DNA from: Dictyostelium discoideum
Lineage: Eukaryota
DNA length: 64,000 nucleotides
Reading direction: 5' to 3'
Assembly: GCA_000004695.1 (NCBI GenBank)
Contig: CM000155.2
Location: forward strand, 480,001-544,000
Positions 43,707 to 55,520 of the stretch are shown here, one piece after another. The translations under genes were made by a program, and so were the position numbers. Below the pieces are notes generated by a model. It was not told where the DNA came from and did no database searches. It worked only from the letters and a program-made list of their open reading frames with translations. Positions within the stretch are counted from its first letter, which is position 1, and every line of letters starts with the position of its first letter.

Positions 43707-44130
43707 TTATTTTTTGTTTTTATGATTGTTCATTATTTTACATTTTGTATTTTTTTTTAAATTTGGTATTTCATTGAATTCTGAAATTGGAATAATATAA
43801 ATTGATTCAAGTGTTGTATTTTGATCGAGCATTGATACAATTGATTTGGTAATTAAATTAATATTCTTTGTTTCAGATTCATAATAACAAATAGTAAAAT
43901 CAAGTGTTAAATTTTTAATTGTTTTATTATTTGCAAGTGAGTTCATAAAATCGTTTAAAAAGTTTTCATTGAATAAACTATTTTCATCCCATCCACATTC
44001 ACCACCACAATCATGAGTAATTGATAAATTTGTAATTGTTGAATTTGTTGATAATAGTTATAAACATTTTTTCCATAGAGACATTGAATATGGTGGTATT
44101 TCTACACATGCAATTATCATGATCCCTAAA
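43707..44130 (-). pseudogene. 3' fragment of an F-box-like/RNI-LRR family gene
   Basis: ORF 43707..43946 (MNSLANNKTIKNLTLDFTICYYESETKNINLITKSIVSMLDQNTTLESIYIIPISEFNEIPNLKKNTKCKIMNN...). Upstream 43950..44110 has the IPPYSMSL.../ITNLSITHDCGGECGWDENSLFNENFLNDFMNSLANNK pieces with frame breaks. Nothing further 5' is present. Confidence 0.5.
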
Positions 44131-44417
44131 TGAAAAATAGATTTGGTAATCTTCATTTTTTCAAAAAAAAAAAAAAAAAAAAAAAAAATTTAAAATAAAA
44201 CATTTGTGTTGTAGGGAATTTTCAATAAAATTTCACCATTGTTGTAGGGAATTTAAAAAAAAAAAAAATCAAATTTAAAAAAAAAAAACCCAAAAATCTC
44301 TCTGTTTTTTAATTTTATTTTTTTTATTTTATTTTATTTAATTTATAAAAATGAAATGGAATTTGAATACTATTTTTTTATTTTTTTTTTTTTATTTTTA
44401 TGATTATTCTTTATTTA

Positions 44418-45792
44418 TTATGTAAATATTTTACATTTTGTATTTTTTGTTAAATTTGATATTTCTTTGAATTCTGAAGTTGGAAAAATAACAATTGATT
44501 CAAGTGTTGTATTTTGATCGAGCATTGATGTAATTGATTTTTTTAAATTTATAATGTCTGTTTCAGCATCATAATAACTAAGAGTAAAATCAAGTGTTAA
44601 ATTTTTAATTGTTTTATTATTTGCAAGTGAATTCATAAAATCATTTAAAAAGTTTTCATTGAATAAACTATTTTTATCCCATCCACATTCACCACCACAA
44701 TTATGAGTAATTGATAAATTTGTAATTGTTGAATTTGTTGATAATAGTTTTAAACATTGATTCCATAGAGACATTGAATATGGTGGTATTTCAATACATG
44801 AATTATCTTGATCACTAAATGAACAATAGATTTGGTCATCTTCATTAATACCATCACCAATAGTATCACCTTGGAAATTAATAAAATTTCTAAAATTAAA
44901 ATTATCCATTTTATTAAAATCAAATTCTGTTTTATCACCACCAAATTTACTATTATCATAGATTGAAGATATAAAATGAAATTGAAGGTCGAATTCGAGT
45001 GTATGTAAATTTGGTGATTGTAAAAATCTATAAAGTGCATATAATGGTATGAAGTCACCAAGGATTTCTACACTTTCATAGTTTTGATTTAATTTTGAAA
45101 TTGAGTGATATTGTCGAAGATGTGATTCTCCTGCATCAGAGGAACTAAAGGGTGTTATTTTTAAATATTTTGGATTTAATTCTTTAATCATTTCATACAC
45201 GAATCCATAGGATGTACCTTCTTCATAATCATATTCAACTTCAAATAGATTTGTTTTAAATTTGAATTCTTCTCTTTCAATATGTTCTAATATTTTGGGT
45301 TGATATGGTTTAAAGCAAGCCAAATCCAATTCAAAATTAATTATTATATCTTTATTATTTAATTTGTTTAAATATGTTAAAACCCATACTGAATTTTTGA
45401 ACGAATATTCATTGTCATATGAACATCTAACATTAACAGTTTCTAATGATTTTAAACTATTCATATAATTAATTGATTTGTTATTTATTTTAAAGTAATC
45501 AATTATTATTGTTTTAATTAAATCATTAGGAACTAATTTAAATTTGCTATTATTATTATTATTATTATTATTATTATTATTATTATTATTATTATTATTA
45601 TTATTATTATTATTATTATTATTATTATTATTATTATTATTATTATTATTATTATTATCTAAATAAACATGTGGAATATAATGATTGAAAAGTATTTGAG
45701 AATTTTTAAACCAATTCCAATTGACAAAAGAATACTTTTTTATTTTATTTTTTATAAAGCCATCTGTTTTTAATTCTTCATATAATAAATAT
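44418..45792 (-). pseudogene. F-box-like/RNI-LRR family member lacking the N-terminal ~35 codons; truncated copy, possibly expressed from an internal Met
   Basis: ORF 44418..45464 (348 aa) is open in frame upstream through the (ATT)n poly-Asn (45551..45658) to ...YLLYEELKTDGFIKNKIKKYSFVNWNWFKNSQILFNHYIPHVYLD. It is cut by a TGA at about 45790, next to a poly(A) tract. The MExETxNKKLKTNLS...IIVLPLIIQKQI start seen in the intact copies is absent. Confidence 0.5.
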
Positions 45793-45957
45793 ATTCAAAA
45801 AAAAAAAAAAAAAAAATAATTATTTTGTGATATTTTTGCTGAATAAATGTATTCCAAAAAAAAAAAAACCAAAATATCTTTTCAAAAAAAAAATATCCAC
45901 CAGGTTTATTATTCCAAAAAAAAAAAAATAAAAAAAAAATAAAAATAAAAAAAAATA

Positions 45958-52518: not shown

Positions 52519-53328
52519 TTTTTTTTTAGTGTTTTAAATTATCTGATATTTTAATAAAAAATATTAAAAATTATTTTTGTTTGATTATTATTTTTATTGT
52601 TTTTGTTGGGGAGAATTTTTTTGTTTTTTTTTTTTTTTTATTAAAAATAAATAGAAATAAAAATAAAGCTAAAGAAAAACAATAAAATGATCACACAAAT
52701 ATTAAAAAAATAAAATAAAAAAAATGAAAAAAAAAAAAAAAAAAAAAAAAAATGATTTTTAATAATATCTAAAAAATTTTCAGGAAAAAAATGAAAAAAA
52801 AAAAAAAAGCATTTTTTTCAAAAAAAAAAAAAAAAAATTCTTGGTTTGCCTTTATTTCTTTTTCATCACCTAAACTCATACCTCTTTTTCATCACTCAAA
52901 CTCATTATATTTACAGTGAACGGATTTGTGGTAACAGCGATAATGAAAAAAAAAACTAAAATAATCAAAAAAAAAAAAAAATAATCAAAAAATAAAAAAA
53001 AAAAAAAAAAAAATCTTGGAAAAAAAAAAAAAAAAAAAAAAGTTTTTCCCCCATATTAATTTATATTGGATTATTATAAACATGTAAAAAATAATGATTG
53101 AAAGGTTTTTGAAACTATTTAAACCAATTCCAATTAACTAAGGATTTTTCAAAAAAAAAAAAAAAAAAAACCCAAAAAAAAAAAAATTTGTAAAAAAAAA
53201 AAAATTTAAAAAAAATAAATAAGGTCGGAAATGAAATTTTTTTAAAAAAAAAAAAAAAAAAAAAAAAAAAAAAAAAAAAAAAATGTTGTCATATACCATG
53301 GGTAATGGAAAAAAAAAGTAATTAATAA

Positions 53329-53874
53329 ATGGAAAAAGAGAAATTTGAATACTCAAGAGAGGGTGAAAAGAGTAGTTTAACAATTGATACAGGTAAATTA
53401 GTTCAGGAATTTAATTCTTTGCCATATGAAGATATTCAAGGTAAAAAGAAAATTATAGAAAAGTTATTTGGTTCAGTTGGTGACGATGTATCAATAGAAC
53501 ACAATTTTCATTGTGATTTAGGATTCAATATTCATGTTGGTAATAGATTCTATGCAGGTTATAATTTTACAGTATTGGATGTAGCAGAGGTTAGAATTGG
53601 TGATAATTGTTTAATTGCACCAAATGTTGGCATTTATACAGCAGGCCACTATATATCACCACCAGAGGAAAGGCATAAAACAGGTTATGGTATACCTATA
53701 ACAATTGGTAACAATGTTTGGATAGGTGGTCATTCTGTAATATTACCAGGTGTAACCATTGGCGATAACTCTATCATTGCCGCTGGTTCTGTCGTTAATA
53801 AAGATGTTCCAAAAAATACAATCGTTGCTGGGAATCCAGCTAGAAAAATAAAAGATATAACTTCAAAACTTTAA
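53329..53874 (+). CDS. hexapeptide-repeat (left-handed beta-helix) O-acetyltransferase, maltose/galactoside O-acetyltransferase (Maa/LacA) type, 181 aa
   Basis: ORF ...HNFHCDLGFNIHVGNRFYAGYNFTVLDVAEVRIGDNCLIAPNVGIYTAGHYISPPEERHKTGYGIPITIGNNVWIGGHSVILPGVTIGDNSIIAAGSVVNKDVPKNTIVAGNPARKI shows [LIV]GxxxxI hexapeptides and the Maa-family HxxxP(L)...ER motif. Confidence 0.8.
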   Translation: MEKEKFEYSREGEKSSLTIDTGKLVQEFNSLPYEDIQGKKKIIEKLFGSVGDDVSIEHNFHCDLGFNIHVGNRFYAGYNFTVLDVAEVRIGDNCLIAPNVGIYTAGHYISPPEERHKTGYGIPITIGNNVWIGGHSVILPGVTIGDNSIIAAGSVVNKDVPKNTIVAGNPARKIKDITSKL

Positions 53875-53896
53875 TAACGTATAATTTTATTTTATT

Positions 53897-55520
53897 TTAT
53901 TTTTTTATTTTATTTTGTTTTGTTGTGATTATTTTACATTTTTTATTTTTTGTTAAATTAGATATTTCTTTGGATTTTAAACTTTTTCTAAAATTTTTAC
54001 TATAATTAATAACAATTGATTCTAGTGTTGTGTTTTTGTCGAGCATTGATGCAATTGATTTATAAATTAAATTTATTTTGTTTTTTTCTTCATATTCACT
54101 TAGACGCACTTGAAAATTAAAATCAAGTGTTAAACTGTTAATTGTTTTATTATTTGCAAGCGAATTCATTAAATCATTTAAAAAGTTTTCATTTAATAAA
54201 CTATTTTCATCTAAATCATAGTTGTCAAAACCACAACGGGAAAATGAACCACAATTATGAGTAATTGATAAATTTGTAATTGTTGAATTTGTTGATAATA
54301 ATTTTAAACATTGATTCTAGAGACTTTGAATATGGTGGTATTTCTTTTGAAAAACATGAAATTTCACTACGACTATATGAGCAATAGATTTGATTATCTT
54401 CATTTATACCATTATCAATATAAAATTTAATATCATCATGAACTTCAAATATTTTTCCTTTATTATCATTTCCAAAATCAATAAATTTAAAATTATCCAT
54501 TTTATTAAAATCTAATTCTGTTTTGTCTTTATCACCACTATCTTTACTACTATCATCTCTATTACTATTACTATTACGATCACTATAATAATTATTATTA
54601 TTTTTAATTTGATTATGATCATAGATTGAAGATAAAAAATGAAATTGAAGATTGAAATTGAGTGTATGTAAATTTGGTGATTGTAAAAATCTGTAAAGTG
54701 CATATAATGGTATGAAGTCGTCAATGATTTCTACACTTTCATAGTTTTGATTTAATTTTGAAATTGAGTGATATTGTTGAAGATGTGATTCTCCTGAATC
54801 TGAAACACATCGAAGGGGTTTGATTTTTAAATATTTTGGGTTTAATTCTTTAATCATTTCATAAACGAATCCATAGGTTGTATTATATTCAATATCATAT
54901 GAAACTTTAAATTCATTTGTTTTAAATTTGAATTCTTCTTTTTCAATATGTTCTAAATTTGTTGGTTCATAGGGATCACAGCAACCCAAATATAAATTAA
55001 AATTAATTAATAAATCTTTATTATTTAATTTATTTTAATATGTTAAAACCCATATTGAATTTGTGAATGAATATTCATAGTAATGTAAACATCTAATATT
55101 AACAGTTTCTAATGATTTTAAACTATTCATATAATTAATTGATTTATTATTTATTTCAAAGTAATAAACTATTATTGTTTTAACTAAATCATTATGAATC
55201 AATTTAAATTTGTTATTATTACTATTATTATAATTATTATTATTATTGATTTTGTAAAGAATATTTGTTATATTTAAAATTTGAATAGTTTTTATTATTA
55301 TTATTATCAAAATAAATACGTGGAATAAAATTACTGAAAAGTTTTTGAGAATTTTAAACCAATTCGAATCCACAAGGGAATAATTTATTATTTTGTTTTT
55401 AAATTCTTTTAAAATTTCAAAACTGTCCATTTTATCATATTCTTCATATAATAACCATTATTATCATTATTTACTGATAGATTTGCTTTGAGTTTTTTAT
55501 TTGTAGTTTCGTCTTCCATT
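53897..55520 (-). pseudogene. decayed copy of the F-box-like/RNI-LRR family gene (frame breaks, internal stop, N-terminal deletion)
   Basis: The pieces lie in three frames: ORF 55035..55430, ORF 54255..54989 and ORF 53897..54169. The start at about 55520 (MEDETTNKKLKANLSVNNDNN...) lacks the IIVLPLIIQKQ segment. The conserved ccatagagacattgaatatgg is mutated to ttctagagactttgaatatgg, which creates a TAG near 54318. Confidence 0.6.

Follow-up and report, generated by a model that had tools for sequence, protein, structure and literature searches.

A tandem array of rapidly evolving leucine-rich repeat genes with a probable degenerate F-box in Dictyostelium discoideum

What kind of protein is encoded by a run of related genes, some intact and others truncated or broken, that occupies about 12 kb of Dictyostelium discoideum DNA, and by what process does this run change? 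The genes are located in a stretch of 64,000 nucleotides from chromosome 6 of strain AX4, here called the window (assembly GCA_000004695.1, contig CM000155.2, positions 480,001 to 544,000 of the forward strand; G+C content around 20%). An earlier note, made from the letters of this stretch alone, had described them as a tandem array of F-box-like, leucine-rich repeat (LRR) genes in active turnover. Our analysis establishes, from a structure model and profile comparisons, that the body of the encoded proteins is an irregular ribonuclease inhibitor (RNI)-like LRR solenoid of about 11 repeats, and shows that copies are gained and lost through unequal recombination and segmental duplication. The N-terminal domain is probably a degenerate F-box. 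We favour, with moderate confidence, a family of substrate receptors of the SCF (Skp1/cullin-1/F-box) ubiquitin ligase, in which the F-box would bind Skp1 and the solenoid would choose substrates, the family being diversified by unequal recombination and by changes in its C-terminal repeats.

Organization of the array

When both intact open reading frames (ORFs) were compared with the window by tblastn, all previously listed elements were recovered, almost to the base, with E-values down to 1e-153, which excludes chance similarity. Throughout the 12-kb array the members are on the minus strand, as had been claimed. The main copies are the following:

46360–47919, minus strand: intact copy A, a single-exon ORF of 519 amino acids with two poly-Asn tracts (ORF list, tblastn).
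50842–52518, minus strand: intact copy B, a single-exon ORF of 558 amino acids (ORF list); an identical 558-residue gene is called in an AX4-like assembly (L002).
44418–~45794, minus strand: copy 1, one open frame from which the first ~35 codons are gone, the LP helix included (three-frame translation).
44418–45464, minus strand: annotated gene DDB_G0291642 (348 amino acids) within copy 1, an exact match to the AX4 protein on the chromosome 6 record (3.6 Mb).
53897–55520, minus strand: copy 4, a pseudogene with at least three frameshifts, one in-frame stop and a deleted LPLIIQKQIL segment, the LP helix (three-frame translation).

Copies A and B are 57–75% identical at the amino acid level (tblastn). 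A separate upstream first exon for copy 1 was sought by tblastn of residues 1–33 against 45795–46200, giving no match, so the N-terminal truncation in AX4 is real. DDB_G0291642 is the only AX4 protein record of the family recovered in the region, where two intact ORFs and several pseudogenes can now be flagged; a literature search on it found no paper. The description of copies A and B as unannotated genes was dropped: their exact sequences are missing from the protein collection, yet B is called in the identical assembly.

Fold of the protein body

In the full-length proteins, a conserved helical domain at the N-terminus is joined by a poly-Asn linker to an irregular RNI-type LRR solenoid, which contains a family-specific core. 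In copy B, these parts are arranged as follows:

52273–52455, minus strand: F-box-like N-terminal domain, residues 22–82, with an LP..IQKQIL helix, a variable insert and an LVNWNWFK helix.
52095–52221, minus strand: (AAT)n poly-Asn tract of 42 units (TRF).
50911–52056, minus strand: irregular RNI-type LRR solenoid, residues ~155–536, with 11 strand/helix units (AlphaFold2).
51484–51654, minus strand: family-specific core, residues 289–345, the most conserved part.

The LRR body is assigned from its predicted fold and from a profile link to known LRR proteins. The AlphaFold2 model of copy B, calculated from the family alignment (pTM 0.71, mean pLDDT 66.8), is an alpha/beta solenoid, and its Foldseek matches in the PDB are almost all RNI-type LRR domains (NLRP/NLRC4, CARMIL, ribonuclease inhibitor, RanGAP, tropomodulin), with the F-box/LRR receptors TIR1, FBXL17-SKP1, FBXL3 and KDM2A-SKP1 among them. 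The C-terminal unit of the family profile (~390–475) matches one group of proteins in three to eight separate stretches (HMMER; P0066 with an E-value of 2.5e-10, P0067 with 6.2e-10, P0075 and P0077). These four proteins carry the ribonuclease-inhibitor-type repeat LRR_6 (PF13516) with E-values from 1e-31 to 1e-62, so that the link to bona fide LRR proteins is a significant one.

The RNI-type repeats named in the earlier note are thus upheld by model fold, Foldseek matches and profile link, while the Pfam search proposed there to detect them fails. At E ≤ 1, the window proteins and 22 aligned family members match no LRR model, all that is returned being low-complexity artefacts caused by poly-Asn; PF13516, PF00560 and PF12799 find nothing in the family proteins, and LRR_R13L1-DRL21 is matched in one member with an E-value of 0.08. 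A phmmer search of the PDB with copy B also returns poly-Asn artefacts only (SAP30, NDC1). No member matches the FNIP repeat model (PF05725) in Pfam, which sets the family apart from FNIP/IP22-repeat proteins, and no NACHT or NB-ARC domain is matched, the likeness to NLRs being confined to the LRR part.

The core has the sequence SHLxQYHSISKLN...IPLYALYRFLQSP.L.TLKF.LQFHF, in which H289, H294, I308, P314, L315, F321, L322 and P325 are invariant in the family alignment; no Pfam model matches it. Across the core and the next repeats, at 51484–51654 and 50911–51340 on the minus strand (copy B residues 289–345 and ~394–443), three histidines (H289, H294 and H337) and four cysteines (C394, C417, C436 and C443) are invariant or nearly so, and this set may form a family-specific metal-binding or cofactor site.

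The N-terminal domain

The head of the proteins starts with the motif LP..IQK.IL..(L/I)Y, continues with a variable insert of 10–40 residues and ends with (A/S)LV(N/C)(W/K).WF. In the family alignment P27, I34, W67 and F68 are invariant or nearly so, and the LP and Trp positions are the most conserved residues of the N-terminus. Members from Polysphondylium violaceum read YALVCKQWFQISKNLV, which resembles the canonical F-box helix 3. Modelled in isolation, the head forms three helices. With residues 22–82 preceding a solenoid at 155–536, the motif occupies the position of an F-box upstream of a repeat-type receptor.

Curated models and the first PDB search detect no F-box. The Pfam search at E ≤ 1 described above returned no F-box model either, PF00646 and PF12937 are not matched at their gathering scores, and a 19-sequence N-terminal profile compared with the PDB retrieves no F-box chain, but one irrelevant match. 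With the window head alone, Pfam gives nothing at E ≤ 10. Weakly positive are the N-termini of ten relatives, each searched in isolation: four of them have Pfam F-box matches below threshold (E-values 0.011–0.17; 12–16 bits for cut-offs of 20.5–24.3), and in three of the four the F-box is the top match.

A direct profile comparison gives a weak but reproducible signal. The reference consisted of ten textbook F-boxes, the identity of which was first confirmed by Pfam. Aligned to it with hhalign, the 19-sequence head profile scores 19.6 (P = 0.001); 300 column shuffles score 8.0 ± 1.8 with a maximum of 14.6, none reaching 19.6, and the reversed profile scores 8.8. The relaxed alignment is collinear, placing LP on LP and helix 1 on helix 1, followed by the insertion and by LVNW.WFK on VCKrW..L, so that it takes in the initial LP as well as the Trp of helix 3. 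When wider dictyostelid relatives are added, giving a 32-sequence superfamily alignment of the head, the hhalign probability is 60.5%, with a P-value of 8.4e-5 and a score of 24.0; this alignment is again collinear from LP to helix 3, and none of 200 shuffles (7.7 ± 1.7) reaches its score. Searched against 177,635 PDB sequences, the broad head profile has a sole match, the FBXO42 helix LVCKQWYRLI (E-value 1.6). At least eight relatives carry the UniRef label "F-box domain-containing protein", which presumably stems from a PROSITE-type profile. The F-box-like N-terminus proposed earlier is thus not detected by Pfam, but is supported by collinear similarity above all shuffles.

Bona fide Skp1 interactors of Dictyostelium often have degenerate F-boxes with inter-helix insertions, and their receptor domains are mostly LRRs (Boland et al. 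2022, PMC9485057). Neither the family nor DDB_G0291642 is named in the accessible parts of the text and supplement of that paper. In the favoured reading, the head of the array proteins would be a degenerate F-box in which extra residues separate helix 1 from helices 2/3, and would dock the protein onto Skp1 in the SCF complex, while the LRR solenoid, chiefly through its fast-changing C-terminal repeats, would select the substrates.

As the main alternative, the array genes would encode free cytosolic binding, inhibitor or sensor proteins acting outside SCF, for which ribonuclease inhibitor, RanGAP, tropomodulin and the LRR domains of NLRs are the models; the N-terminal helices would then serve as a cap peculiar to the family or bind some other partner. 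We judge this unlikely, though deserving of serious attention. Besides the hhalign result, the sub-threshold Pfam matches of the relatives and FBXO42 as the PDB match, it is opposed by the conservation pattern of the head, in which the F-box-defining LP and Trp positions change least. The head is also under purifying selection and is kept in all copies of another isolate (see below), and no NACHT, NB-ARC or other signalling domain is found by Pfam.

Turnover of the copies

Apart from the copies described above, the window contains fragments of the family, and two elements of the array belong to a co-duplicated neighbour:

43713–44129, minus strand: 3'-end fragment (tblastn, DNA self-comparison).
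46204–46361, minus strand: 3'-end fragment directly downstream of copy A (tblastn, self-comparison).
49903–50077, minus strand: 3'-end fragment (tblastn, self-comparison).
50571–50726, minus strand: internal fragment, aligning to copy B residues 157–208 (tblastn, self-comparison).
53076–53144, minus strand: N-terminal fragment with the VNWNWFK region, absent from the earlier list (tblastn, self-comparison).
31252–32177, minus strand: older remnant, frameshifted (tblastn).
32192–32314, plus strand: inverted 3' piece beside the older remnant (tblastn).
53329–53874, plus strand: hexapeptide acetyltransferase DDB_G0291538, an interleaved non-family gene that matches the AX4 protein exactly.
55740–56152, plus strand: partial duplicate of the acetyltransferase gene with an internal gap (85–90% nucleotide identity), between copy 4 and the polyketide synthase (PKS) gene.
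56394–63449, plus strand: PKS gene, adjoining the array.

DNA self-comparison reveals the duplication units, which comprise 3' ends of family genes, flanking intergenic DNA and the acetyltransferase gene nearby. The region 43662–44157 is a tandem partial duplicate, at 87%, of the 3' end of copy 1 (44368–44846), while 45938–46364, a 3' fragment with its flank, is repeated at 49637–50057 with 90% identity. The internal fragment at 50571–50726 has 88–90% nucleotide identity to copies 1, B and 4. From the partial acetyltransferase copy it follows that the duplications spanned more than the family gene; this copy looks like a probable pseudogene derived from a duplicated unit of family gene plus acetyltransferase.

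Between isolates the differences are larger. The comparison was made with an isolate labelled D. discoideum (GCA_054859355.1), two loci of which (L003 and L001) were merged into 41.5 kb. This array contains 12 near-full-length copies, all on the same strand, and one fragment, versus two intact copies in AX4; the N-terminal head is kept in 12 of the 12, and most copies are without a one-to-one counterpart. Copy 4 is about 95% identical in nucleotides to a 470-residue gene model of that isolate (P0006), indicating recent inactivation. Unequal recombination and segmental duplication have thus led to several-fold differences in copy number between the isolates and have left behind truncated, frameshifted or fragmentary copies. 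The active turnover first read from the window alone is strongly supported by these counts, together with the substitution rates and open frames described below.

The poly-Asn tracts also vary. The (AAT)n/(TAT)n tracts inside the copies have 12–42 units each (TRF), the equivalents of the copy B tract being:

47597–47696, 46935–47005, 45548–45658 and 55213–55247, minus strand: (AAT)n tracts (TRF).

In the AX4-like assembly L002, the same locus is collinear and 99.67% identical. The tract at 45546–45658, upstream of DDB_G0291642, differs there by 11 codons, the largest single difference over 19.7 kb, so the variability ascribed to these tracts is seen even between near-identical assemblies. The remaining differences are mostly homopolymer lengths in intergenic A/T runs (52748, 53243).

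Could the copies be cargo or parts of a transposable element, the outcome named in the earlier note as one that would overturn it? In the other isolate, a piggyBac-type transposase gene (PF13843, DDE_Tnp_1_7; 938 amino acids) occupies a central position in the array (L003 1–1599 / L001 1–1872, contig JBTAPG010000039.1), and dispersed remnants are present 12 kb away in the window, at 31252–32314. That gene has no counterpart in the AX4 window, and Pfam finds no transposase, reverse transcriptase or integrase domain in the family proteins. The copies all point the same way, unique host genes that were duplicated along with them lie in between, and the family is small (71 matches in 1.84 billion representatives) and clustered rather than dispersed. 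On domain content and co-duplication with host genes, a transposon identity was rejected, and we regard it as extremely improbable. The piggyBac-type gene itself may be a still-active element or may have been domesticated, and it might favour rearrangements.

Selection along the gene

Copy B and its best match in the other isolate differ with a nonsynonymous rate (dN) of 0.067 and a synonymous rate (dS) of 0.076, a dN/dS of 0.89; for copies A and B dN/dS is 1.00, and among paralogues it ranges from 0.7 to 1.4. The controls between isolates are much lower, 0.14 for the flanking PKS (96.4% identity, dN 0.016, dS 0.12) and 0.22 for the acetyltransferase. Given the PKS identity and the divergence of the acetyltransferase, the other isolate is generally diverged, and the family is more diverged still. 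The rates are uneven along the gene: dN/dS is 0.3–0.65 in the F-box-like head, dN is 0.03–0.06 in the core, and dN/dS rises to 1.2–1.8 in the C-terminal repeats (residues ~397–524). The rapid evolution for which a dN/dS check had been proposed is thereby strongly supported. The C-terminus differs from head plus core with Fisher p~0.04–0.05 in four of six pairs, which are non-independent, and were analysed with an estimator that is crude for a genome of 78% A+T and in the likely presence of gene conversion; for these reasons diversifying selection on the C-terminal repeats is suggested rather than shown.

Several of these observations would also be expected from neutral genomic drift, that is, if the array had simply been generated by unequal crossing-over, in a region rich in repeats and prone to recombination, with most copies functionless or decaying and a dN/dS near 1 reflecting relaxed constraint. 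Gene-wide values of 0.7–1.4 among paralogues, a pseudogene, a truncation and at least five fragments within 12 kb, the single AX4 protein record and the several-fold copy-number variation all fit such drift. The open frames do not. In simulations with substitutions alone at local base composition, a 558-codon ORF stayed open in 9 of 5000 runs at 4% divergence and in 0 of 5000 at either 8% or 15%. Copies differing by 15–17% at non-synonymous sites are still open, which excludes plain neutral decay; ORFs of 519–558 codons are not kept open neutrally at the observed divergence. Drift is further contradicted by the uneven constraint, under which the core hardly varies and the N-terminus is conserved, by persistence of the family across Dictyostelium, Polysphondylium and Tieghemostelium, and by the low dN/dS of the copy 1 orthologues given below. 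We consider it decidedly improbable. Selection keeps those ORFs that survive open, far beyond what neutrality would predict, and at the same time permits or favours amino acid change in the putative recognition surface.

DDB_G0291642 (44418–45464) and its counterpart (L001 17646–18695) have a dN/dS of 0.23, far below the value of about 0.9 for the intact copies, so the headless copy appears to be maintained. Its LRR-only product is perhaps kept as a decoy or competitor. In the other isolate, residues 1–86 of the counterpart are still present upstream, in a different frame.

Distribution and relation to known systems

An exhaustive HMMER search of 1.84 billion representatives with the family profile gave 71 proteins at E ≤ 1e-3. 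The identified members come from Dictyostelium species, Polysphondylium violaceum and Tieghemostelium lacteum, and Cavenderia, Heterostelium and D. purpureum have more distant relatives with the same architecture. Annotations call every member hypothetical or uncharacterised. A scan of bacterial and archaeal genome contigs found no prokaryotic relatives. Judged by these searches, the family is confined to Dictyostelia, which bears out the lineage-specific, undescribed family proposed earlier. One 481-residue model from D. discoideum (P0029, ACTFIR_003542) has an unrelated, signal-peptide-bearing N-terminal part fused to a copy-B-like F-box-like head (VNWNWFKYSQILFNHFIPHVYLDNREY); the probable explanation is a chimera created at a poly-Asn tract during annotation or assembly.

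The architecture corresponds to that of FBXL-type receptors (SKP2, FBXL2/3/17, TIR1, COI1, MAX2). In contrast to these, the F-box of the array family is below Pfam detection and has 10–40 amino acids inserted between helix 1 and helices 2/3, its LRRs are irregular, with a spacing of 24–45 residues and a large insertion at residues ~343–409, it contains the invariant core SHLxQYHS...IPLYALYRFLQSP, and its Skp1 binding is putative. The family resembles the divergent F-box proteins of the Skp1 interactome, which come from the same organism (PMC9485057), but is not named in the accessible parts of that work. F-box and LRR are also combined in the Ralstonia GALA/RipG effectors and other CC-LRR proteins, with RipG4 and LegL1 among the profile and fold matches. 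GALA/RipG proteins differ in being secreted bacterial effectors with regular 24-residue GALA repeats and an F-box that Pfam detects, whereas the array family is without prokaryotic relatives.

Caenorhabditis and plants possess lineage-specific F-box superfamilies in tandem arrays (FBA/FTH, FBX genes); these undergo birth-and-death evolution, and their substrate-binding domain is under positive selection. The Dictyostelium array shares with these expansions its tandem clustering, the many pseudogenes and fragments, large copy-number gaps between close relatives, and a conserved F-box end opposite a fast-evolving receptor end. It differs in clade (Amoebozoa), in a receptor that is RNI-like LRR rather than FBA, FTH or kelch, in its much smaller size (between a few and about a dozen members per genome) and in the approximate nature of the evidence for selection. 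The kind itself is unsurprising. What sets the family apart is an F-box that carries an insertion and escapes Pfam, irregular repeats that include an invariant family-specific core, and the restriction to Dictyostelia.

If the head binds Skp1, a Pfam-invisible, Dictyostelia-specific branch would be added to the F-box/LRR receptors, and the combination of conserved F-box and diversifying receptor in a tandem birth-and-death array would extend from nematodes and plants to Amoebozoa. The family profile can be used to find cryptic F-box proteins missed by Skp1-interactome work. If Skp1 binding fails, what is left is an uncharacterised, fast-evolving LRR family of modest general interest.

With several-fold copy-number variation between isolates, the locus is a candidate for roles in conflict between amoebae and bacteria or among amoebae. 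It is conceivable, though as a specific proposal improbable, that the SCF substrate receptors of the array form a diversifying arsenal for an intracellular conflict. Their targets could be effectors of bacteria or symbionts, selfish elements, or factors that determine cheating and kin discrimination in chimeric development. Presence/absence and sequence polymorphism would then be one source of differing resistance among isolates or of their incompatibility, and the array would be a third independent F-box-based, innate-immunity-like system, after those of nematodes and plants. In Caenorhabditis hybrids, newly evolved F-box genes contribute to incompatibility.

Neighbouring genes

Towards the beginning of the window, three large ORFs (32943–39327) match no Pfam domain, and the genes at 3224–29046 are ordinary-looking:

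3224–4435: IPP transferase with zinc finger.
5007–6173: H-type lectin domain protein.
10155–15242: gelsolin-repeat protein of 1695 amino acids.
17249–18445: HECT_2 E2-binding protein.
19373–20071: oxysterol-binding protein fragment.
26713–29046: OPT oligopeptide transporter.

The PKS and accessory genes reported beside the array are present as described. In addition to the PKS and acetyltransferase, a third non-family gene is located between copies A and B:

48420–49465, plus strand: SAM-dependent carboxyl methyltransferase (Methyltransf_7/SABATH-like), split by one or more introns; a 309-residue model in L002.

No counterpart of the methyltransferase was seen in the other isolate's 41.5-kb array. 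Together, methyltransferase, PKS and acetyltransferase resemble a small secondary-metabolite cluster.

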